Source: Candidatus Bathyarchaeota archaeon
GTDB lineage: Archaea; Thermoproteota; Bathyarchaeia; Bathyarchaeales; DTEX01
Direction: 5' to 3'
Assembly: GCA_018396655.1 (NCBI GenBank)
Contig: JAGTQF010000001.1
Coordinates: forward strand, 63,844 to 127,843
Length of the DNA: 64,000 bases
Made by a program: the position numbers and the translations under genes. This document shows, one piece after another, positions 43,472 to 55,234 of the stretch (position 1 is its first letter; the number at the start of each line of letters is the position of its first letter). The notes beneath the pieces are model-generated. The model did not search any database. It was not told the DNA's origin and worked only from the letters and a program-made list of their open reading frames with translations.

Positions 43472-44515
43472 TTAAAATCTTCGCTTTTCCTCATAAAGGA
43501 ATGGGCTAGTTACATCATCCCGCCTGTCAATATACTTGATTGGATAACGTTTCTCCGGCCCTAAAAGAGATTTCGGCCTCCCTATGACCTCAAATCTGAA
43601 TAGAGTTGACTTATACCAGTATACCCCAGGGTTTTGTTTAACTGGAAAACTTAGTTTAATGGTAAATTTTTCGTAGTTTGCGTTATCATACAGGGTCTTA
43701 TATTTTGAGAAATCCCTAATGACATCTGTTATTACGCAGTTCATTCTTAGGAGCATCCTTTCAACAGCCATCCACTTCCTAAATGAGGCCTCAGCCGTTG
43801 ACAGCCCGAAATATCCAGCGCCATCATCTTTTAAGCATGCGATACCCCTAGAAAGGAAAGCTTTAAGCCCACTTAATGTCTCTAGAGGCTCTGATGAGAA
43901 GACATCAAACATGCCAACCAAGCTTTCTGGAAGGGGATTCGACACATCATACCTTTGGAATTCAATCTCTAAGCCATATCTCCTATTTATCTCCCTTATG
44001 TATTCACCAAGTCTCTCATCAATATCTAGAACGAATATTCTTGATGGGAGTCCCGTTAGAGCTAAAGCTATGCTTAACAGGTCGTCGTCGCCTACTAATA
44101 TGAAAGATTTATGTGCCAAATCATCATAATGGTGCATCAGAGCTAACCTAGCTATCACATCTTGAGCGCGCATATATCCCTGGAAGAACTCTGCTTTTGG
44201 AGCCGGTCTATCGTCAACTATCTTCAAGTAATCCTTCATTACATCCTTAAATCTCTCGTCAAATACTATTCTCTTTCCCTCACATTCACTGCATATCCTA
44301 CTCTTAAATTTTAAAAGTCTTCCATCAATCTGCTCCTTTCCCTTCTCCGTTATATATATTAAGTCTCCTTTAACATCAATAAGGCCATCTCTGAAGAGAT
44401 TGTTTACTGCGCTTATGAACTCCTTCACTGTGTAACGGTTCTCGTCTAAGAGTTCCCAGAATCCCTTACTGGACTCTAGGAGGCTGCTTAGTATTTGTAT
44501 TTCGATTTTTCTCAT
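43472..44515 (-). CDS. bpsA: N4-bis(aminopropyl)spermidine synthase (branched-chain polyamine synthase, DUF43 family)
   Basis: 347 aa. ILVGDDDLLSIALALTGLPSRIFVLDIDERL and GYFGLSTAEASFRKW closely match, from memory, the Thermococcus kodakarensis BpsA sequence. Confidence 0.8.
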   Translation of the reverse strand: MRKIEIQILSSLLESSKGFWELLDENRYTVKEFISAVNNLFRDGLIDVKGDLIYITEKGKEQIDGRLLKFKSRICSECEGKRIVFDERFKDVMKDYLKIVDDRPAPKAEFFQGYMRAQDVIARLALMHHYDDLAHKSFILVGDDDLLSIALALTGLPSRIFVLDIDERLGEYIREINRRYGLEIEFQRYDVSNPLPESLVGMFDVFSSEPLETLSGLKAFLSRGIACLKDDGAGYFGLSTAEASFRKWMAVERMLLRMNCVITDVIRDFSKYKTLYDNANYEKFTIKLSFPVKQNPGVYWYKSTLFRFEVIGRPKSLLGPEKRYPIKYIDRRDDVTSPFLYEEKRRF

Positions 44516-44858
44516 AAAAGTCCCTTCTCAACATCTTCTTCTCAATGGCTTTAGGCTTTAGCTCCTCAACCAATAAATCGAAGGCTCTAAAAGCACATTC
44601 ATCAGAACCACACGTAAATATATCCAAAGCAACATAACCATACTCAGGCCACGTATGAACACTCAAATGGGACTCGCTCAGAATATACGTGGCAGAAACA
44701 CCATGAGGCTCAAACTGATGAAAAACTGATGAGACAGCATGAAGGCCAGATTTAGAGACAACCCTATCTAAAATAGCGCGTAAATCTTCTACCCTCGCAA
44801 TCTTCCCGGGGTCCACCCCCAGGAAGTCCGCGATGATATGGATGCCCAACTTTAACAT
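44466..44858 (-). CDS. speH: S-adenosylmethionine decarboxylase proenzyme (pyruvoyl, SpeH type)
   Basis: 130 aa. It carries the self-cleavage and active-site context ILSESHLSVHTWPEYGYVALDIFTCG. The 3' end overlaps bpsA by 50 nt. Confidence 0.85.
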   Translation of the reverse strand: MLKLGIHIIADFLGVDPGKIARVEDLRAILDRVVSKSGLHAVSSVFHQFEPHGVSATYILSESHLSVHTWPEYGYVALDIFTCGSDECAFRAFDLLVEELKPKAIEKKMLRRDFYEKNRNTNTKQPPRVQ

Positions 44859-45167: not shown

Positions 45168-45371
45168 TTATGCATTCTGCATCCTTCTAAGGGTTACTAC
45201 CGAATTCAACGCGTCAATCGTTATTATCTTCACATTGTTCACTATTGTTTCCCTCATATCGGCATCTAAAAGTTTAATGTTATCACCCTCCCTAAGAATT
45301 AAAGTCACATCCTTGGCGATTAATCTCCTACCAAAATTTTGGTCCTCAACATAAACTTTTAGTAGGCACAT
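45168..45371 (-). CDS. cooT: CooT-family small nickel-binding protein
   Basis: 67 aa. It starts MCLLKVYV (Met-Cys2, the Ni-binding Cys of CooT) and has the size and beta-rich pattern of the CooT/PF10133 family. It lies 18 nt downstream of the cooC-like gene. Confidence 0.6.
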   Translation of the reverse strand: MCLLKVYVEDQNFGRRLIAKDVTLILREGDNIKLLDADMRETIVNNVKIITIDALNSVVTLRRMQNA

Positions 45372-45389
45372 TGAGCTATCTCCATCCTC

Positions 45390-46175
45390 TTAAACTTTAA
45401 TCCTCCACATACCTTCGATTATTTCTCTTAAATCATTTATCGCTGTGCTCGATTTAATTGGCTCCTTCCTTAAACATGAAATATATAATTCTCTATCGAA
45501 CCTCACCACACCATCAATCTTTAAACCTAATCTCGCAGCTTCTCCTAGAAGAGCCTCTTTAATATCTTCCGTAACTTTATTGGCTATAATCCATATGTCT
45601 TTATTCAGTTTTTTAGCTGTCTCATTTAACATTAAGGCTGTTTCTAGGGATTCTATTGTTGGGTCAACAATCACAAGTAGCCCGTCACACGCCTCCTCTA
45701 TCCTTCTGCCAACATGCTCTACCCCCGCATCAGTATCAACGAGAACAAACTCGTCCTCCATCAGTTTTAGGTTGCTCAGTAAAGCCCTTGCCAAAATATT
45801 GAATGGGCATGCACATCCCTCGCCATATTCTCTAACTTTTCCTATTGTCATCAAGCTTATTCCCTCCCTCGAGGTGGCGATGTATTCTTTGGGCAGTAGA
45901 TTAAGCCTTATTCCCTCCCTTGCCTTGGCCAGTGCACTAATTATTTTGGGTAGAGCCCTCTCCATCTCTTCCTCCTCCCTTTTACCGCCAATGTAGTCAA
46001 TTAGGGGTTTAGGAGGTTCAACGCCTAAAAAATACGGAAGCAGAATGTTAGATTCATCAGAGTCAACAACATAAACTTTGAAGTACTCAGAAAGTATCCG
46101 CGAAGCTAAAACAGTTATGGCAGTTTTTCCAGTTCCGCCCTTACCACATACCATCACCCTCATAGGGACCCTCAT
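45390..46175 (-). CDS. cooC: CooC/AcsF-type nickel-insertion ATPase (MinD/ParA superfamily)
   Basis: Deviant Walker A is VCGKGGTGKTAI. The CxC metal motif GEGCACPFN aligns with CooC1 SQCYCREN. VDTDAGVEHVGRR is also present. The ORF track extends to a TTG at 46196; ATGs lie at 46175 and 46163. Confidence 0.75.
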   Translation of the reverse strand: MRVPMRVMVCGKGGTGKTAITVLASRILSEYFKVYVVDSDESNILLPYFLGVEPPKPLIDYIGGKREEEEMERALPKIISALAKAREGIRLNLLPKEYIATSREGISLMTIGKVREYGEGCACPFNILARALLSNLKLMEDEFVLVDTDAGVEHVGRRIEEACDGLLVIVDPTIESLETALMLNETAKKLNKDIWIIANKVTEDIKEALLGEAARLGLKIDGVVRFDRELYISCLRKEPIKSSTAINDLREIIEGMWRIKV

Positions 46176-46239
46176 ACTCAACGCCTTCACACTCAATAAA
46201 TATTAGAGGCTACAGATATGCTTTGGGTAATGGTCAGTG

Positions 46240-46397: not shown

Positions 46398-49112
46398 TTA
46401 TTCTTTAATGTTCAGGATGCCCTCTTTAACCCTCTTAAAGTCTAATAGGGCTATGGATGCTGCCTCAAGGAATGTTTGGACTGGAACTATTTTTATGCCC
46501 CTCTCAGCTAGCATCTTCTCTGTGTCAAAGCTCTTCAGCCTCTCATAATTATATCTTGGTATGATTAGCGTGCGGGCATACTGGTCTGAAAGGGCAGCCT
46601 CAATCTTACCCATCCCCCTATAATCGAGTCCACCAACTGGCCAAACCTCCCCAAGCGCGGTTATAGCGCCCGTCATAACAACAGTCGGGTCAACCTCAAC
46701 ACCAGTTAAAGCTGAGAGCATTGCTACTGCTATTGCGAGACCAGCGGATGGTCCTGAGACGGGTGGTCTCGTTATGCCGGGTCCGACTATTTGTTTCTCC
46801 ATTCCTTTGGCTGGTGTAACTAATTCGATATATACATCGTAGTCTTTAAACCTCCAGTTTGAAATCGAGTTTATATATATGAACGCATCATATGCGCTTG
46901 CTAATATACTCTCACCAGTTTCGCTTCCAATCACATGAACCTTCCCAGAACCCCTTGGGTTAACAACAACCTCTATCACGCCGACAAATCCGCCCAATTC
47001 ACCACGTTCTCCCAAAGCCACAAGCCCATAGCTCTTTCCTATCTCCGGTTTCGGTATTCTAACAGTCTCAAACATCATTCTCTGCGCCTCTTCAAGTGCC
47101 TCGTCATAGGTTCTCTCTAGAGCCTTCTCGAAATGATAGAGTCTCAGCGGGTAATTCTCAGGCTCAATCCTCTCGAGCTTACTTATTAAATCTGGGTCGT
47201 TTGGGTCAACCTTTAACACCTCGAAGAGGCGCTCTAGGTCGCTTTTATAAAGCTCCTTTATTTCACTTGTTTTCTCAGGCTTATACTTCATTGTTTGAAG
47301 AAGCCTATAGCATGCTTCGAGTTCTTTTGTTCTTAATCGGTTTGCATCATCAATTGTATCAGCGATTTTTCTCGGACTTAGAATCTTCTTCTCAAAGATT
47401 CTTAATATATCGCTGGCTGTTAGACCCCTTTCTAAATGATGCCTGTACCTTCTAAGGTGTATTTCTATTATCTCGAGCTTCTCCTCCCTATTCTTTGGAT
47501 ACGTGAACTCAAAGTGTCTCGTGAAGCGCTCAAGCAACGCTGGGTCAAGAATCTCGATGCGGTTTGTGGCGCCAATAACCACAACATTCGTAAGCGGCGT
47601 GAAGCCATCTATCTCCGTGAGCAGCTGGGAGACAACCCTATCAATAACTGGGTCGTGGGTTCCTCTTCTAGGCGCTATGGCATCAATCTCATCGAAGAAT
47701 ATTATTGCTGGGGCATTCTTACGCGCGTCCTCAAATATATCGCGTATAGTCTTCTCGGGGTCCCCATAATGTCCCTGGAGGATTGAGGGACCATTGATAT
47801 TGTAGAACCAGACATTGTTCTCTCCGGCTATAGCCTTAGCCAATAGAGTCTTACCGGTGCCTGGAGGACCGTAAAATATGAAGCCCTTCGGCGGTTGATA
47901 GCCAGCCTTAACAGCTAGGTTAGCGTCTAGAGCCAGAGATATCTCTTTAATTATCTCATCTTTTATTCCATGGAGACCTCCGACGTCACTATATCTTTCC
48001 CTTGGCGCTATCCTAATAATCGCCTTTTTTGCAGCCTCAGTCTTCTCTGCAGATGTGTAGCTTTTAAGCTTACGGGCGGCAGCCCTGAAGTCGCTAAGGC
48101 TTACCTCCTTTCTGATGGTTTCAACATGCACGTCATCTTCGGCCTTAAAGAAGATTCTATCTATGAGCTTACGCTGTATTGGTCTATATTTTTCGCTCAT
48201 AACTATATCGAAGGCATTGCATATATCGGCGGGTGTTAATTTTGTTCCACCCACACTTCTCAACGTATCCTCTATCGCATCAACTATCTCCCTTGGATTA
48301 AGTTCCAAGCCGTATTTCTCACAATTCCTTTTTGCTATCTCAATAAGCATATCCCTTGTGATTCCCGTATCGAGGTCTATTGTTCCAACAACACCTCTAC
48401 GCCGAAGGGTTTCCGTAATAGTTTCATACTCATTTGTTGATATTAGCAGAATGCACCTGTAATTCTTCTTTTGTAGGTCATCAATCTTCTCTAGAAATAC
48501 TGTTTGAACCCTCTTCTCTTCCATTCCAACCTCAGTTGAGGATGCAAATCGACTTCCAAAAGCCTGAAACTCGTCAATCAATATTACACTGGGTCTTTGG
48601 AATGCTGCCTCAAAGAAGGCGCTGAGCTGCTGGGCGCTCCTACCATACCACATAGTGTAGACTTCCTCTGGCTTGAGAGATGCATAATAAACAATTAAGC
48701 CGTATTTTAAGCCAGCCTCAAATATTTCTCTTTGGCATGCTTCGGCAAAAAACGTTTTTCCACTTCCTGAACTGCCCTTCAGTATGAAGACTTTTGGTGG
48801 TGGAACTGGGCTGCTCTTGCGAATCTCAGGGTCTCGAAATATGTGATAGTAAGCGCTTAAGAGAACCTTATCGAATTCCTCATCTCTTCCAACAACATCA
48901 GCCCTCGTTACTCTTGGGAAGTCAAGTCTTTTTCTTATAGCCCTAGCCTTCTTTTCAACCTCAGCCTTCCTTTTCTCGGGGGGCTTTTGTAGAAACCTCC
49001 ATAGCCTATATTGCCATGAGGTCAGGTAGAGTAGTGGAGCAAATATTTTTCTTAACTTTGGCCTATTATACCACCATTGGCTTGTGAACTCTTCCTCCTT
49101 CTCCTCATACAT
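46398..49112 (-). CDS. tandem AAA+ ATPase fused to a C-terminal Lon-type Ser-Lys protease domain
   Basis: 904 aa. AAA-1 has GSSGSGKT, ILIDEF and MWYG. AAA-2 is the classical clade: GPPGTGKTLLAKAIAGE, IIFFDEIDA, GHYG and ATNRIEILDPALLERF. The Lon protease domain has VSGPSAGLAIAVAMLSALTG and GGLDYRGMGKIEAA. Confidence 0.8.
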   Translation of the reverse strand: MYEEKEEEFTSQWWYNRPKLRKIFAPLLYLTSWQYRLWRFLQKPPEKRKAEVEKKARAIRKRLDFPRVTRADVVGRDEEFDKVLLSAYYHIFRDPEIRKSSPVPPPKVFILKGSSGSGKTFFAEACQREIFEAGLKYGLIVYYASLKPEEVYTMWYGRSAQQLSAFFEAAFQRPSVILIDEFQAFGSRFASSTEVGMEEKRVQTVFLEKIDDLQKKNYRCILLISTNEYETITETLRRRGVVGTIDLDTGITRDMLIEIAKRNCEKYGLELNPREIVDAIEDTLRSVGGTKLTPADICNAFDIVMSEKYRPIQRKLIDRIFFKAEDDVHVETIRKEVSLSDFRAAARKLKSYTSAEKTEAAKKAIIRIAPRERYSDVGGLHGIKDEIIKEISLALDANLAVKAGYQPPKGFIFYGPPGTGKTLLAKAIAGENNVWFYNINGPSILQGHYGDPEKTIRDIFEDARKNAPAIIFFDEIDAIAPRRGTHDPVIDRVVSQLLTEIDGFTPLTNVVVIGATNRIEILDPALLERFTRHFEFTYPKNREEKLEIIEIHLRRYRHHLERGLTASDILRIFEKKILSPRKIADTIDDANRLRTKELEACYRLLQTMKYKPEKTSEIKELYKSDLERLFEVLKVDPNDPDLISKLERIEPENYPLRLYHFEKALERTYDEALEEAQRMMFETVRIPKPEIGKSYGLVALGERGELGGFVGVIEVVVNPRGSGKVHVIGSETGESILASAYDAFIYINSISNWRFKDYDVYIELVTPAKGMEKQIVGPGITRPPVSGPSAGLAIAVAMLSALTGVEVDPTVVMTGAITALGEVWPVGGLDYRGMGKIEAALSDQYARTLIIPRYNYERLKSFDTEKMLAERGIKIVPVQTFLEAASIALLDFKRVKEGILNIKE

Positions 49113-49119
49113 AAAATGG

Positions 49120-49941
49120 TCACCCCTCTAAAATCATGAGGCGAACTTGGTAAAGTATGAAGAAGCTCGCTAGAATCAGTAGAATTATCAGCGCCCAGCG
49201 AGTCTTTGGCACTCCCTCTATTCTATTCTTGAAATATGAGTCTACAATAAGAAATATGTCAAAATATGCGAGCCCTGCTACGGTGGCAGCGAACAAAAAT
49301 ATGCTTAAAGGTTTGAAAGAGCCCAAAAGTGCTAATGGATTTGAAGACTTATTATAAACTTGTAGGGTAACATTGATTTTGTGGTTTAAACTTCTATCTC
49401 CTTCTGGCGATATGCCGATTTTCGGAAAAAGAATTATGAATGAGGAAGTTAAGATGGTGAGGGAGCCGGCTGATGTGCCGCCGGCTGGTGTAATTGTGGG
49501 GGTTCCTACCGTCTCGTAAAATTTGGGTTCACTTGTATATACACCTATAGTAGCATTCCACGCTCCTGCAAAACTAAATGTAACCATGAAACTATAAGTT
49601 CCCTCAGACTTTGGTGTCACGTATATCGATGAAACCCTTTGCCCCTCATATAGGTCGTTGGTTGAGAATTTTATGAATATCGGCTTTGAAGGAATACACT
49701 CCACCGATAGATTTTCTACTGGCGGCCATATATAAATCGCCAGAGTATCGTTTGCTAGGATTCTTAGTTCTCCTGTTTGCCAAATTGTTTCCTCCGCTAA
49801 TGCAGGTCTCAAAAGCGTGGCGGTTAAAATGCATGCAACCGCCATTATGCGAAGAATGAGCTTTAAAGGTGGGCTTCTATTTATGCGAGTTTTAGAACAC
49901 TCTCTCTTATAGAGAACTTCGTTCATTGAACACCTTCTCAA
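49120..49941 (-). CDS. membrane protein, paralog 1 (N-terminal anchor, extracytoplasmic beta-rich domain, C-terminal TM hairpin)
   Basis: 273 aa. It shares IYIWPPVENLSV.C.P and (A/S)(A/T)WNATIGVY with the upstream paralog. Its stop lies 7 nt before the AAA-Lon start. Confidence 0.6.
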   Translation of the reverse strand: MRRCSMNEVLYKRECSKTRINRSPPLKLILRIMAVACILTATLLRPALAEETIWQTGELRILANDTLAIYIWPPVENLSVECIPSKPIFIKFSTNDLYEGQRVSSIYVTPKSEGTYSFMVTFSFAGAWNATIGVYTSEPKFYETVGTPTITPAGGTSAGSLTILTSSFIILFPKIGISPEGDRSLNHKINVTLQVYNKSSNPLALLGSFKPLSIFLFAATVAGLAYFDIFLIVDSYFKNRIEGVPKTRWALIILLILASFFILYQVRLMILEG

Positions 49942-49999
49942 TATTGCTATTTCCTAATACCTTATGATAAATATTTCTCCCAATATCCGCTTCTTTCTT

Positions 50000-50791
50000 T
50001 TACCCTGATAAAGCAACATATAATTGATATATGATTAGAAGGCTTATGAGAGCCAGCAGAGCTACTAACGCTAGGCGGATTCTCGTCGCCCGCTCAGCCC
50101 TTCTCTTAAAATATAAATCTGTAACGAAGAACGCATTTAAATAAATCAGTACAGTGCTAATTACCGCAAATAAAATCATATTTGTGGTGCTAGGAAAACT
50201 TATATTAAGTGTCTCGGAGAATGGTTGTTCATAAACCCTTAAATCAATGCTTATCTTATAGTGGCTATTTGTTGTTTGGCCGCTTGATAATGCAGTAATC
50301 TTCTGGAGTTCCACAAAATAGTAGCCTTGAGATACTGAGATGGTTCCAATTCTCTGGTAAAATTTGATGTTACTTGGATATACACCTATAGTGGCATTCC
50401 ATGTAGCACTGGAGCTAAATGAGACTAAAACATTATATACTCCACTCGTGCTTGGCGTAAAATATACAACTGATAGTTCACGCCCATATTGCCGCCATCT
50501 TGAGGAGAAGGCGGTCCAGAACCTATTTGACCCCTGTGGATTGCAATTTACCGATAGGTTTTCTACTGGCGGCCATATGTAAATCGTTAACGTATCATCT
50601 CTAAAAATATCGAATTTAAGATTGACTGATGTCTCATTCGCGAGTATGCACCTTGGCATAATGGCTGATGTGCTTAGAAGAGCAATCGTTAGGGCAAAGA
50701 TTACGTTCCCACAATATCTGAGACCATGCTTTCTTCCTATTCTCCTTAAAAGGAGATTTCTACCCTCTCTATAATTTGTGCTCTTTAGCAT
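50000..50791 (-). CDS. membrane protein, paralog 2 of the 49120..49941 product
   Basis: 263 aa with the same architecture and the same two conserved motifs. It lies 58 nt upstream of paralog 1. Confidence 0.6.
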   Translation of the reverse strand: MLKSTNYREGRNLLLRRIGRKHGLRYCGNVIFALTIALLSTSAIMPRCILANETSVNLKFDIFRDDTLTIYIWPPVENLSVNCNPQGSNRFWTAFSSRWRQYGRELSVVYFTPSTSGVYNVLVSFSSSATWNATIGVYPSNIKFYQRIGTISVSQGYYFVELQKITALSSGQTTNSHYKISIDLRVYEQPFSETLNISFPSTTNMILFAVISTVLIYLNAFFVTDLYFKRRAERATRIRLALVALLALISLLIIYQLYVALSG

Positions 50792-50907: not shown

Positions 50908-52200
50908 ATGCTTATGCACAAGCGTAAGTATTGGGGCGAGATTAAGGACCCAATATATGGTTATGTTTCTATAACTGATGTGGAGAAGGAGATTATAGAT
51001 TCGTTTCCATTTCAGAGGCTGCGTAGGATAAGGCAGCTTGCTGGTGCCGAATATGTTTATCCAGGGGCTAATCATACTAGATTTGAGCATTCGATAGGTG
51101 TTATGCATCTTGCTGGGCTTATGGTTGATAACCCCCAAATATCGCAGATTATATCTGAAGATGAAGCCCAGATGATTCGTATAGCAGCCCTACTCCATGA
51201 TGTTGGTCATGGACCTTTCTCGCATGTATTTGAGCACATTCTCACGAAGTTTCTTGGAAAGACCCATGAGGACATGACTACTTGGATAATTACAAGCTCT
51301 GAACTTAGGGATATTATAAGTGGTTTAGGCTATGACCCGAATGTTATTGGGGCCCTAGCAGTTGGCAGATTAAATAGACCTAAAATGGCTTTTATGGACC
51401 AGATTATTAGGAGTGCCGTTGATGCCGATAAGCTGGATTTTGTCGTTAGGGATACGTATCATACTGGCGCGGAGTATGGTTTTGTGGATGTTTTCCGCCT
51501 AACGCGAACATTAGATGTGATTGATGGAAACCTATCTGTCGATGTGGGTGCGCTCTCAGCGCTAGAGTCATTTATACTTGCACGCATAGAGTCTTTCAAG
51601 AGTATATATTTTCATAGGGTTGGGAGGGCTGTTCAGATAATGCTCGCGATGGCTATGGAGAGTGCCAAAGATGAGTTAGGTCTTGTAGATTTTAGGTCTC
51701 CAGAAGAATATTTGTCGCTCAATGATTACACGCTATGGACTAAGCTGAAGGAATGCGAGAAGTCTAGGGGGATTATTGAGAGGTTAGAGAGGCGAAAGCT
51801 GTTAAAATGCGCCTATGACCCGCCACCATTCTATATTAAAGATAGAATTGTCTCAGCAATATTCAATGTTGAGGGAATAAGGAATAGGATAAGGGAGCAG
51901 ATAGCCGAGGAGGCTGGCGTAGAGCCCCAAGAGGTTATAATTGATGTGCCAACACTTCCCTCAGTTCCATACCACCATGCCTTCCCGCTCGAGCCAATGG
52001 AGATACCTGTCTTCCAGAAGACTAGGGATGGAAGAAAAATTTCAGGCAGACTGAGCGAGGTTTCCGGAATATTCGATCTTCTTAAAGGTTTCATGAATAT
52101 TCTAAGGGTCTATACTGAGGAGGAGCATTTGAAGAGGGTTCAGGAGGTTTCTGAAAGGCTTTTTGGTAATCTTCCATTTTCAATGAAAATATCATATTAG
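50908..52200 (+). CDS. HD-domain phosphohydrolase (COG1078, SAMHD1/dGTPase-like)
   Basis: 430 aa. Landmarks are FQRLRRIRQLAG, HTRFEHSIGVMHLA, LLHDVGHGPFSH and DADKLDFVVRD. Confidence 0.8.
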   Translation: MLMHKRKYWGEIKDPIYGYVSITDVEKEIIDSFPFQRLRRIRQLAGAEYVYPGANHTRFEHSIGVMHLAGLMVDNPQISQIISEDEAQMIRIAALLHDVGHGPFSHVFEHILTKFLGKTHEDMTTWIITSSELRDIISGLGYDPNVIGALAVGRLNRPKMAFMDQIIRSAVDADKLDFVVRDTYHTGAEYGFVDVFRLTRTLDVIDGNLSVDVGALSALESFILARIESFKSIYFHRVGRAVQIMLAMAMESAKDELGLVDFRSPEEYLSLNDYTLWTKLKECEKSRGIIERLERRKLLKCAYDPPPFYIKDRIVSAIFNVEGIRNRIREQIAEEAGVEPQEVIIDVPTLPSVPYHHAFPLEPMEIPVFQKTRDGRKISGRLSEVSGIFDLLKGFMNILRVYTEEEHLKRVQEVSERLFGNLPFSMKISY

Positions 52201-52245
52201 TGGTTACGCATGTAATGGGTGTGAAGACTAGGGGAGAGGTGGATA

Positions 52246-52653
52246 TTGGCTGAGATTATACTTAGGGGTCGGCCGATAGTTTCTGGTCGAGCTAGAGGGG
52301 TGGCTCTAGTATCAAGTAAGCCCCTAAGTTTTCTGGGTGGAGTTGACCCTAAGACGGGGATAATTGTTGAGAGGGGCCATGACCTTCATGGCAAAAGCGT
52401 TAGAGATGTAATTTTATGTTTTCCACATGGGCATGGCTCAACAGTCGGCAGCTTCGTGCTCTTCTCGCTTGCCAAGAATGGCTTAGCTCCAAAGGCTATA
52501 GTAAACTTGGTTGCCGACCCAGTTGTAGTTGTTGGCGCAGTTATCGCCAACATACCAATGATTGATGGGGTCGATATTACGAAGATTAGGTGCGGTGACA
52601 TCTTGGAGGTTGATGGCGAGACGGGCTTAGTGAAGGTTTGTAGGGAGGGTTAA
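52246..52653 (+). CDS. aconitase X swivel-domain small subunit (DUF126); putative phosphomevalonate dehydratase small subunit
   Basis: 135 aa. GRARGVALVSSKPLSFLGGVDPKTGII...GKSV...ILCFPHGHGSTVGS is the typical DUF126/AcnX pattern. Confidence 0.75.
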   Translation: MAEIILRGRPIVSGRARGVALVSSKPLSFLGGVDPKTGIIVERGHDLHGKSVRDVILCFPHGHGSTVGSFVLFSLAKNGLAPKAIVNLVADPVVVVGAVIANIPMIDGVDITKIRCGDILEVDGETGLVKVCREG

Positions 52654-52660
52654 TAGAGGC

Positions 52661-53836
52661 ATGTATTTGACTAAGGATGAGGAGCGAATATATGATGGTG
52701 AGATGGGCTGGGCCTACCAAGTCTCCATGAGGATACTTGTTAAGCTGGGTGAGCTTTATGGTGCTAGGCGCTTAATACCGGTGGAATCAGCGCATATCTC
52801 AGGGGTATCCTATAAGACTGTTGGTGACGCCGCCATCGACTTTCTTAAAGCCTTGGTTGAGTCTGGTGGAAAAGTTAGGGTTAAGGCGACAATAAACCCG
52901 TCCGGCGTCGATTATAATTATGCATTTTTCAGGGCACTTCCAGAGGATTTGTTAGAGAGACAGAGGGAGATAATTGATTTGTATGAGATGATGGGTGTGG
53001 ATGCAGTTTTAACATGCACACCATATTATGTTGAGCCCCCCTCATGTGGGGCGCATGTGGCGTGGGCGGAGTCATCGGCTGTTGTATATGCAAACTCGAT
53101 TATCGGTGCTTGGACGAACCGTGAGGGTGGACCTAGTGCGCTTGCATCAGCGCTTATAGGCAAAACACCAGATTATGGGCTCCATCAGCCGGAGAATCGT
53201 CAGCCGACGATACTAGTAAGGGTTGAGGCGAATCTTGGGAGTGAGGCGGATTATGGAGCGCTTGGCATACATCTGGGTAAAATCTTGGGTGATAGAATAC
53301 CGTTAATTCAAGGGTTACATGGCGCTAATGAGACATGCCTAAAGCAGATGGGGGCTGCGATGGCGACCAGCGGCATGACCCCAATGTTCCACATGAATGA
53401 ATACGGTGCGGAGCACAATAAAAGCCTTGAAAAAATAGCCGTTGAGGATAGGGATTTAGTTAGGGTATATGAGGAGCTCTCAACTTCTGATGAAAAGCCT
53501 GATCTGGTCTTTATAGGATGCCCACACTGCTCATTTGATGAAATCAAGCTTGTTTCAAAGCTTATTGAGGGTAGAAGGATTAGGGAAGACATTAGATTGT
53601 GGGTTTGCACCTCTCGCTTTATACGTGGAAAGGCTGAGGATTACGTGAGACTTATTGAGTCGGCTGGCGGTAGAGTGGTATGTGGAACATGCGCCGTAGT
53701 CACGTGGTTGAAGAATTTTGGGATTAAAACGGTGATGACAAATTCAGCTAAGACGGCTTACTATGTGCAATTACTGGATGGTGTTAAAGCCAGCTTATCT
53801 CCAATAAGTGAATGCATTAATGTAGCATGCGAATAA
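52661..53836 (+). CDS. aconitase X catalytic large subunit (DUF521); putative phosphomevalonate dehydratase large subunit
   Basis: 391 aa. MYLTKDEERIYDGEMGWAYQVSMRILVKLGELYGA...VESAHISG matches the DUF521 N-terminus. It starts 7 nt after the small subunit. Confidence 0.75.
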   Translation: MYLTKDEERIYDGEMGWAYQVSMRILVKLGELYGARRLIPVESAHISGVSYKTVGDAAIDFLKALVESGGKVRVKATINPSGVDYNYAFFRALPEDLLERQREIIDLYEMMGVDAVLTCTPYYVEPPSCGAHVAWAESSAVVYANSIIGAWTNREGGPSALASALIGKTPDYGLHQPENRQPTILVRVEANLGSEADYGALGIHLGKILGDRIPLIQGLHGANETCLKQMGAAMATSGMTPMFHMNEYGAEHNKSLEKIAVEDRDLVRVYEELSTSDEKPDLVFIGCPHCSFDEIKLVSKLIEGRRIREDIRLWVCTSRFIRGKAEDYVRLIESAGGRVVCGTCAVVTWLKNFGIKTVMTNSAKTAYYVQLLDGVKASLSPISECINVACE

Positions 53837-53908
53837 AGCATCATGATGCATTAGGCGCTAAGGGGTAGAGGGAGAGGCTACTCCAGTTGATACCTCCCTA
53901 TCATCTAA

Positions 53909-55234
53909 TTAGCCCCTCCCTAGGCTCAGTTTAATACTCTCAATTATCTTCGCAGCCCTATCAGATATAGGGACGTTTGCCCTCTCAAACCTCTCTTTGG
54001 GGAGCATTAGCGGGGCCGTTGCATCCAAGCCGACCTTAGTTGTCAAGCCAGTCTCTATGTCTGCTGAGGGGTCGAGGGTTGAACCTCTAACATTCCGAAT
54101 AACCACTAAATCTTCATCCGCCTGGAAGCGTGTCGCTATGGCCCACTCAACCTCGCTTGGATTAAAAACATCCACATCTTCATCTACGACAATAGCGTGC
54201 TTAAGGCTCGGATGGGCGGCAAAAGCTGCTAGAAGAGCATTCTTGGCATCGCCATCACTCTGCTTCCTAATCGATATTACGGCATGAAGCCACCCGCACC
54301 CACCCATAGTTAGATTAACAGCCCTAACCTCGGGCACAACCTTAGAAACAGCATCATATATGGCTGCTTCTCTAGGCAAGCCCATGAGCAGCATATGCTC
54401 AGGTCCACCTGGCAGAAGAGCCTGATAAATATAGTCTTCTCTTCTCATAACGTTAATGACCTCGACGATGGGTTGCATCCTTCGTGCATCATAAGCCCCA
54501 GTTATATCAACGAATGGTCCCTCAGGCGCCTCCTCAAAATGCGAGATTCTTCCCTCAAGTATCATTTCGGACTCCGCTGGAGCATATGCATTCACCTTCT
54601 CGCATTTTATGAGTTTCAGTCCGCCTTTAAGCAGCCTATTTGCAACACCATACTCGCTGACACCGAATGGCGGCGATGAGGCTGCCGCTAAGAGTACTGC
54701 TGGATGAACGCCCACGGCTATAGCAACATCAAGGTCTCGCCTGGCCTCCTTAGCCATGCTCCAAAGCCTAAACAAATGCCTTGGAACAAGCCTTATCGTC
54801 ATCCGCCTATCGTCAAGAACAAGAAGCCTATGAACCGAAACATTCTCGACGCTTCCATCAGGGCTCTTGGCAGAGACAATAGCAGAGGTTATATATGGGC
54901 CAGCATCGCGCTCAAAATGTCTTAAAACCGGAATTCTAGAGAGTTTAGGTTCTTCAATAACCTCCTTAACCGGCCCATCATTAACTATTCTTGGGTTCTC
55001 TGGCCTATTCATCGCATCAATCAAATCTCTATATAATCTCTCAGGGCTTGTCTTTAGAGCTAGGCAGAGTCTCCTCCTTGTGGCGCATACATTTCCAACA
55101 ACCCTAGAATCATACCCCTCAACATTCTCGAAGAACACTATTGGTTCACCTGGGATAGACCTCATTATCGCTGAAATCTCAAACACTGGTGAAACGCTGT
55201 CCTCTACATGGATTACCTCGCCTAAATCCTCCAT
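53909..55234 (-). CDS. UbiD-family (prFMN-dependent) decarboxylase; candidate anhydromevalonate-phosphate decarboxylase
   Basis: 441 aa. UbiD landmarks are DAGPYITSAIV, SVHRLLV and EGPFVDITGAYD. It is convergent with the AcnX genes. Confidence 0.75.
   Translation of the reverse strand: MEDLGEVIHVEDSVSPVFEISAIMRSIPGEPIVFFENVEGYDSRVVGNVCATRRRLCLALKTSPERLYRDLIDAMNRPENPRIVNDGPVKEVIEEPKLSRIPVLRHFERDAGPYITSAIVSAKSPDGSVENVSVHRLLVLDDRRMTIRLVPRHLFRLWSMAKEARRDLDVAIAVGVHPAVLLAAASSPPFGVSEYGVANRLLKGGLKLIKCEKVNAYAPAESEMILEGRISHFEEAPEGPFVDITGAYDARRMQPIVEVINVMRREDYIYQALLPGGPEHMLLMGLPREAAIYDAVSKVVPEVRAVNLTMGGCGWLHAVISIRKQSDGDAKNALLAAFAAHPSLKHAIVVDEDVDVFNPSEVEWAIATRFQADEDLVVIRNVRGSTLDPSADIETGLTTKVGLDATAPLMLPKERFERANVPISDRAAKIIESIKLSLGRG

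Follow-up and report, generated by a model that had tools for sequence, protein, structure and literature searches.

What is the product of a gene that joins two AAA+ ATPase modules to a Lon peptidase domain, and why does it lie beside genes for membrane proteins? Here we analysed such a locus in a window of 64,000 nucleotides (nt) from Candidatus Bathyarchaeota archaeon (assembly GCA_018396655.1, contig JAGTQF010000001.1, positions 63,844 to 127,843). Three open reading frames (ORFs) run on the minus strand at 46398-49112 (904 amino acids, aa), 49120-49941 (273 aa, TTG start) and 50000-50791 (263 aa), with gaps of 58 nt between the two membrane-protein genes and 7 nt before the fusion gene, as an original prediction made from the sequence had described. 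The conserved unit is a two-gene module, the fusion and one membrane partner; the three-gene form is peculiar to the window. The reading we favour, with a probability of roughly 0.55, is that the fusion is an unfoldase-protease held at the membrane by its partner.

A double AAA+ ATPase fused to a Lon peptidase

The fusion gene divides as follows, in window coordinates.

46398..49112, minus strand: the 904-aa fusion gene, with N-terminal motif, AAA D1, AAA D2, helical linker and Lon peptidase (ORF, Pfam, CDC48 profile, full-length homologs)
48933..49091, minus strand: N-terminal aromatic/basic region, residues 8-60 (EF..WWY.R..LR..F.PLLYL.SW.YRLW.FL..PPEKR, then a basic helix; conservation, model)
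48093..48929, minus strand: AAA D1, residues ~62-340 (best solved relatives are the D1 of VAT, Cdc48 and p97)
47433..48017, minus strand: AAA D2, residues ~366-560 (E=2e-97 to VAT; Pfam AAA at 412-537)
47064..47432, minus strand: all-helical linker, residues ~561-683 (model helices 566-683; without a Pfam match)
46401..47063, minus strand: Lon (S16) peptidase domain, residues 684-904 (Lon_C match, alignments to LonB and LonA structures)
46746-46748, minus strand: codon of the presumed catalytic Ser789 (PVSGPSAG, Pro before Ser)
46605-46607, minus strand: codon of the presumed catalytic Lys836 (GKIEAA)

In Pfam the protein matches AAA over two stretches (whole-protein E=1.4e-61) and Lon_C over residues 689-889 (E=1e-15). 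The PF05362 (Lon_C) score of 58 bits, against a cutoff of 21, assigns the C-terminal domain to the Lon family (MEROPS S16), and 42 PDB Lon chains match this region. Positions 157-637 of the NCBIfam CDC48 profile (TIGR01243) align to residues 50-555, but the protein passes no NCBIfam model, CDC48 being the best at 258.6 bits against a cutoff of 802.65. When the ATPase modules were searched singly against solved structures, both were nearest to VAT and Cdc48/p97 (E=1e-23 for D1, E=2e-97 for D2), with D2 ~50% identical to VAT within the aligned core. Two AAA modules and a Lon domain had been predicted, and these domain searches agree. The prediction needs correction on two points: it limited the classical clade to the second module, whereas D1 and D2 are both of the Cdc48/VAT type, and the spacer of ~200 aa that it placed between D2 and Lon comprises ~125 aa of helices (~561-683).

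The AlphaFold model of the fusion (mean predicted local distance difference test score, pLDDT, 78.5) consists of N-terminal helices 13-60, D1, D2, a helical spacer at 566-683 and the Lon domain, and the N-terminal region is predicted helical with a pLDDT of 83-89. Its best structural matches are p97, Cdc48 and VAT over ~600 columns, and none of the 50 best PDB structural matches combines a tandem AAA with a Lon domain. The linker is specific to the family, in that linker plus Lon part are matched together by family members only.

The motifs GSSGSGKT, ILIDEF, MWYG, GPPGTGKT, IIFFDEIDA, GHYG, ATNRIEILDPALLERF, GPSAG and GKIEAA were all confirmed in the translation. D1 has its Walker A lysine at K119, Walker B at D180/E181, the pore loop MWYG at 154-157 and Arg fingers at R238/R239. 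The corresponding D2 positions are K421/T422 (Walker A), D474/E475 (Walker B, FFDEID), Y449/G450 (pore loop GHYG), N517 (sensor-1) and R529. In HMMER alignments Ser789 pairs with the Ser of GPSAG in a LonA (7p6u) and Lys836 with the Lys of KIEAA in Archaeoglobus LonB, and we take these two to be the catalytic residues. An alignment of 50 full-length fusion homologs, 57-90% identical, was used for conservation. Invariant across it are K119, D180/E181, R238/R239 and M-W-Y-G in D1, together with K421/T422, D474/E475, Y449/G450, R529, S789 and K836 in D2 and Lon. The predicted Ser/Lys dyad therefore stands on proper alignment with solved Lon structures. Since the catalytic residues are all conserved, a one-chain unfoldase-protease is the most likely reading of the protein, and judging by its sequence the fusion is very probably an active ATP-dependent protease.

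The Ser-Lys spacing is 46 residues in 105/105 parsed core-family members, with a four-residue insertion (DYRG) before the Lys relative to LonB. A nearly invariant Arg832 occupies the canonical Lys position of Lon (window 46605-46748, fusion residues 789-836). The N-terminal region also contains residues invariant in the 50 sequences: E8, F9, W13, W14, F24, L28, S32, W33, R36 and R48. A KD-19 scan for transmembrane (TM) segments found none in the fusion. The only hydrophobic window is the buried helix after the catalytic Ser, and the N-terminus was ruled out as a TM anchor, the maximum score there being 0.57.

Comparison with known AAA+ proteases

The 2022 Lon classification (PMC9569914) comprises LonA, LonB, LonC and LonBA, with one AAA+ module each. 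The 2008 survey of Lon architectures, in whose five Crenarchaeota genomes no Lon was found, does not list AAA-AAA-Lon_C. None of the archaeal AAA groups of Forouzan et al. (Vps4, MBA, Mm0854, AMA, PAN and CDC48; PMC3493965) is Lon-fused. Full-text literature searches, with subscription-only literature outside their scope, returned no description of a Cdc48-Lon fusion. By its sequence features the protein is placed outside LonA, LonB, LonC, LonBA, Cdc48 and FtsH, the defining features of each having been tested and failed. That it fits no characterised family, as had been suggested, is borne out by the absence of any NCBIfam pass, by the generic names of its homologs and by its absence from both the 2008 survey and the 2022 classification.

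The fusion resembles Cdc48/VAT in its tandem classical AAA modules D1-D2 with aromatic pore loops and, presumably, in a mechanism by which substrates are threaded into a peptidase chamber. It differs in lacking the N-domain (double-psi barrel and beta-clam), as the first 156 profile positions are unmatched and residues 1-60 are predicted to form short helices. Its C-terminus, …GILNIKE, does not end in HbYX, the proteasome-docking signal of archaeal Cdc48 (Forouzan et al., PMC3493965); the peptidase is a covalent Lon domain rather than a separate 20S particle, and the fusion has a dedicated membrane partner gene.

With LonB (MEROPS S16.005) the fusion shares an ATPase and a Lon Ser-Lys peptidase in one chain, the KIEAA context of the Lys and a presumed job in energy-dependent proteolysis at the membrane. 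LonB, however, has one AAA+ module with inserted TM helices, whereas the fusion has two Cdc48-type modules and no TM helices, and any membrane contact of the fusion would be made through a separate protein. Asp precedes the Ser in B-type Lon centres and Pro in A-type centres, and exactly 42 residues separate the catalytic Ser and Lys in LonA and LonB (PMC9569914). LonB has the Asp and the 42-residue spacing; the fusion has Pro (G-P-S789) and 46 residues, and scores 67 bits with the LonB model TIGR00764 against a cutoff of 517. The A-type centre, with Pro before Ser, is instead a likeness to LonA and LonBA. Yet LonA, LonC and LonBA all have a single AAA+ module, and LonC is ATPase-dead, whereas both modules of the fusion keep all catalytic residues. 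The LonA-type LON N-domain was not found among the 25 best of 36 Pfam families at E<=0.1, and the LonA model TIGR00763 gives 67 bits against a cutoff of 608.

FtsH is likewise a classical-clade AAA fused to a C-terminal peptidase. Its site of action is the membrane, and the bacterial enzyme associates with the membrane proteins HflK/C. FtsH contains a single AAA module, an M41 zinc metalloprotease and two N-terminal TM helices of its own, whereas the fusion has no TM helix; the M41 domain is not among the Pfam matches listed for the fusion, and the FtsH model TIGR01241 matches its AAA domain only (192 bits against a cutoff of 600). The joining of Cdc48 and Lon modules is apparently an event independent of the fusion in canonical Lon.

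Distribution and diversity of the family

Full-length homologs, 58-98% identical, occur in Bathyarchaeia, Brockarchaeota, Marsarchaeota, Thermoprotei and unclassified Thermoproteota, under database names such as 'AAA family ATPase' or similar only; the proteins nearest to the window's fusion come from metagenome-assembled genomes of Candidatus Bathyarchaeia. When one genome of each GTDB species was scanned with the linker and Lon part, 64 loci from these archaeal groups were recovered. One carrier is a complete genome, 'Thermoproteati archaeon 3918-20' (L040, CP117708.1).

A HMMER search with the same part over 1.84 billion representatives added ~25 further clusters of 860-1260 aa, which match the whole linker and Lon region at their C-termini with 28-41% identity. 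Among ten of these that were checked, two AAA stretches are present in all (10/10) and Lon_C at E<=1e-4 in 9/10; the remaining one, P0155, matches the query's linker and Lon region without Lon_C at that threshold. Members from Nitrososphaerales (L070:5001-8363 = P0286; P0148 cluster), 1120 aa long, carry an additional BSP-type peptidase domain (PF04450) at the C-terminus, and their D1 Walker A/B motifs are degenerate. One family member (P0119/P0154, 1261 aa) contains a LAGLIDADG-type intein within D2.

A contig of Candidatus Nealsonbacteria, of the candidate phyla radiation (CPR), encodes a family member (L071:3615-7694) with an adjacent 459-aa partner, among neighbours that include RuvA and a Mur ligase. 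The N-terminal sequence of this partner resembles that of the Nitrososphaerales partner. Bacterial neighbours around a module with a Nitrososphaerales-like partner suggest that the whole two-gene module moved between domains.

Two loci are irregular. At L065:2552-6056 the fusion ORF is only 641 aa and lies 856 nt from the partner (record title coverage 0.79), and at L025:748-1503 the partner is split into two ORFs. In both cases an assembly error or frameshift is more probable than a real pseudogene.

A membrane-protein gene adjoins the fusion

In four homolog neighbourhoods an unannotated gene of ~255 aa adjoins the fusion, while all other flanks differ. A hidden Markov model (HMM) of this partner, iterated over all ORFs of 68 loci, gave exactly one match, adjacent to the fusion, in 63. 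The relevant upstream DNA is missing from the contig in the other five, and the partner is therefore present in 63/63 loci with enough DNA. These loci span Bathyarchaeia, Brockarchaeota, Marsarchaeota and other Thermoproteota, so that the proposed co-occurrence of the membrane protein with the fusion is seen in other genomes.

At 42 loci the partner lies upstream on the same strand, with gaps mostly of -20 to +25 nt, and the close spacing or overlap in many co-directional loci suggests that fusion and partner are made together. At 16 Brockarchaeota-like loci (L004, L044-L055, L057, L059, L064) the partner is inverted, and the divergent genes are 15-116 nt apart. No other locus has a second partner copy; the tandem pair occurs only in the window, and neither of its two members is nearer than the other (31-42%) to the single-copy partners of close relatives.

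Structure and conservation of the membrane partner

The two partner genes of the window have the following features.

49120..49941, minus strand: proximal partner paralog, 273 aa from TTG (start may be Met6 or Met33; ORF, model, HMM family); in the model, signal/anchor helix 26-43, beta-sandwich ~51-196 and TM hairpin 211-241 + 246-272
49327..49791, minus strand: ectodomain of the proximal partner, residues ~51-205, an immunoglobulin (Ig)-like beta-sandwich rich in N-x-S/T (model, sequon count)
49123..49317, minus strand: C-terminal TM hairpin and loop of the proximal partner, residues 209-273 (loop D234-S-Y-F-K-N-R-I-E-G-V-P-K-T-R248)
50000..50791, minus strand: distal partner paralog, 263 aa, of the same architecture

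The start of the 273-aa ORF is uncertain: a database copy of 241 aa begins at Met33, and its aligned part, 88% of the ORF, is identical. Identity between the paralogs is 33% (E=2e-35), and both contain IYIWPPVENLSV and WNATIGVY. A hydrophobic segment lies at the N-terminus of each and a pair of TM helices at the C-terminus, so the shared anchor, beta-rich domain, TM hairpin and common motifs described for the pair from the letters reappear in the sequence comparison and the model. In many orthologs a typical signal peptide takes the place of the N-terminal helix 26-43. Neither protein has a match in Pfam or NCBIfam. In a set of 5.8 billion proteins, a profile search for homologs of the partner, with its word filter saturated, gave at least 8 proteins. 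The model of the proximal partner, built on a 12-sequence alignment, has a mean pLDDT of 69, with ~80-89 in the beta-sandwich core. A Foldseek search of this model against the PDB returned nothing beyond generic look-alikes, Ig-like or topological, none with a TM-score above 0.25, and we rejected the matches to TMEM206/ASOR, filamin and a chagasin-type inhibitor fold as uninformative at these scores.

The middle domain of the partner contains on average 4.0 N-x-S/T sequons, against 1.5 expected from shuffles (p=4e-13), a density 17x that of the fusion protein. This high density fits a location of the middle domain outside the cell and, together with the basic loop between the last two helices, supports an out-in-out topology; the partner may well be glycosylated. 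Across 70 sequences of the partner family, the hairpin loop has the lowest mean column entropy (1.68) and is the most conserved region, with Y226 invariant and D234, Y236, R248 and Y264 highly conserved. The partner evolves much faster than the fusion, with 20-40% identity where the fusion has 55-90%.

The N-terminal motif and distant hairpin proteins

The majority of the distant relatives of the fusion keep a recognisable version of the N-terminal motif, W-x-R…R…P-L-L…S-x-x-Y-R-x-[WY]-[RK]-F. All of the motif-keeping distant fusions that were looked up (4/4) have an upstream, co-directional, unannotated gene within a few nt or overlapping, and its product ends in two TM helices around a short basic loop. 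These distant partners are as follows.

L070: 416 aa, with a much larger ectodomain; Nitrososphaerales
L071: 459 aa
L074: 242 aa
L075: 85 aa, mostly TM helices, with no room for an ectodomain

Another three distant fusions (L069, L072 and L073; P0137, P0136 and P0144), whose N-terminus is different and longer, have no such neighbour. Across the distant partners, the TM hairpin is constant and the ectodomain variable.

Proposed mechanism and alternatives

Modules of the Cdc48/VAT and Lon types function as hexamers, in which polypeptides are threaded by aromatic pore loops into a peptidase chamber. The fusion would likewise form a hexamer, with a Cdc48/VAT-type double AAA ring in which D1 and D2 both appear to be active. 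Aromatic pore loops would grip substrates and thread them through D1 and D2, past the helical spacer, into the ring of Lon Ser-Lys peptidases, a covalent ring standing where ordinary archaeal Cdc48 has the 20S proteasome. The N-terminal aromatic/basic motif, standing in place of the Cdc48 N-domain, may dock on the cytoplasmic loop and TM hairpin of the partner and hold the D1 entry face of the motor at the membrane. An enzyme held there could extract and degrade membrane or membrane-proximal proteins, a role in membrane-protein quality control as a functional analogue of FtsH in bacteria and LonB in other archaea. The two diverged paralogs of the window may provide two alternative or mixed anchors.

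An anchor or adaptor role for the partner is indicated by the strict linkage, by a fusion that has no TM segment of its own, by the conservation of the partner's cytoplasmic loop and by the correlation between motif and partner. The original prediction had left partner, adaptor or substrate side by side. Anchor or adaptor is now the likelier and substrate the less likely, because the conserved part of the protein is the cytoplasm-facing TM hairpin and not the ectodomain. Several points weigh against a membrane-held unfoldase-protease. The genes of the Brockarchaeota-like clade are divergent and not co-transcribed. The partner model is only moderately confident (mean pLDDT 69, 12 sequences), the likeness of the distant partners is topological only, with no significant HMM E-value (2.7e-5 for L071 in a 6-sequence search, >0.05 for the others), and the correlation between motif and partner rests on 4 vs 3 distant loci. 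The 46-residue Ser-Lys spacing departs from the canonical 42, and the active-site geometry is a prediction only. Lastly, the protease might degrade the partner or be regulated by it, rather than being anchored by it.

If the partner were a dedicated substrate or a signal transducer, its ectodomain would serve to sense conditions in the envelope or outside the cell. Acting from within the cytoplasm, the protease would then extract and destroy the partner, or a factor that it binds, much as membrane anti-sigma factors undergo regulated degradation by bacterial AAA+ proteases. Strict adjacency is as compatible with a dedicated substrate as with an anchor, the variable and fast-evolving ectodomain is of a kind common for sensing or exposed domains, and the two paralogs of the window could mean two inputs. 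We nevertheless consider this unlikely, as the 85-aa partner at L075 leaves no space for an ectodomain, the module has no conserved transcription-factor gene at its side, the hairpin and loop are conserved rather than the putative sensor, and the gene overlap or close spacing in many co-directional loci suggests joint production. Somewhat less probable again is a soluble cytosolic quality-control protease, in effect Cdc48 plus 20S in one chain, whose neighbour would modulate it loosely or be unrelated to it. The lack of a TM segment, the closeness of the AAA modules to soluble VAT and Cdc48 and the separate transcription in one clade would all suit such an enzyme. However, 63/63 adjacency over phylum-level distances, with flanks that are otherwise unrelated, is very unlikely to arise without a functional link, and the N-terminal motif co-varies with the presence of the neighbour.

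The module could also be imagined as an anti-virus defence or toxin-like ATPase-protease system comparable to IetAS, as PADLOC IetA models match fusion residues 346-592 (E=2e-43) and NCBIfam IteA_antiphage matches at 8e-36. These matches, though, span the generic D2 AAA only and are weaker than those to CDC48, PAN and FtsH; the IteA model NF042959 scores 124 bits against a cutoff of 510, and the partner proteins match no PADLOC model. At the loci examined the module is present once, amid housekeeping genes (RNA polymerase, tRNA synthetase, ribosomal protein, EF-1alpha), with no transposase or integrase among the annotated neighbours. We rejected this explanation as very improbable.

Genomic context of the window

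The window has a G+C content of 38-47%. A promoter and terminator scan with a bacterial sigma-70 model, which is not meaningful for an archaeon, gave no excess over shuffles. Directly downstream of the fusion gene (window 45168-46196, minus strand) are genes for a P-loop protein of the CooC/CbiA type (268 aa) and for a homolog of CooT (67 aa), both accessory to nickel insertion into CO dehydrogenase; they are not found beside the module at the other loci examined. Further along (window 43472-44858, minus strand), a branched-chain polyamine synthase gene (BpsA_C, E=3e-70) overlaps a 130-aa ORF whose sequence, on reading, looks like S-adenosylmethionine decarboxylase. The pairing of these two enzymes is typical of thermophiles, which suggests a hot habitat for this member of the Bathyarchaeia. 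On the other side, an HD-domain gene is divergent from the distal partner gene and is followed by AcnX-type and UbiD-type genes (window 50908-55234). This order is the same as in the Bathyarchaeia contig L001, so that synteny with L001 extends on that side only.

Significance

According to reviews, the energy-dependent proteases of archaea are limited to the proteasome and membrane-bound LonB, with FtsH absent (PMC4343526). The module described here is a conserved two-gene unit around a kind of AAA+ protease that is described nowhere in the literature searched, and should be of interest to specialists in proteolysis and archaeal cell biology. The family would add another combination of modules, a classical double-ring Cdc48 motor with a Lon peptidase. 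It is found widely in lineages that are abundant yet little studied (Bathyarchaeia, Brockarchaeota, Marsarchaeota and Nitrososphaerales). Its genetically fixed membrane partner makes it a testable model for how a soluble unfoldase is targeted to the membrane, and with one chain and one small partner it is a compact system for the coupling of a type-II AAA motor to a peptidase chamber. The organism with the complete genome (CP117708.1), if in culture, would allow experiments in a native host.

More tentatively, and at rather less than even odds, the family may represent a third, so far unrecognised class of archaeal ATP-dependent protease beside the proteasome and LonB. This would be a single-chain 'Cdc48 plus Lon' recruited by a dedicated membrane glycoprotein by way of the conserved N-terminal docking motif, extending from Bathyarchaeia to the ammonia-oxidising Nitrososphaerales, extracting and degrading membrane proteins, and transferred, apparently once and with its partner gene, to a CPR bacterium. 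If true, this would amount to Cdc48-driven extraction of membrane proteins in a prokaryotic form that needs no ubiquitin, akin to endoplasmic-reticulum-associated degradation (ERAD), with a built-in peptidase.

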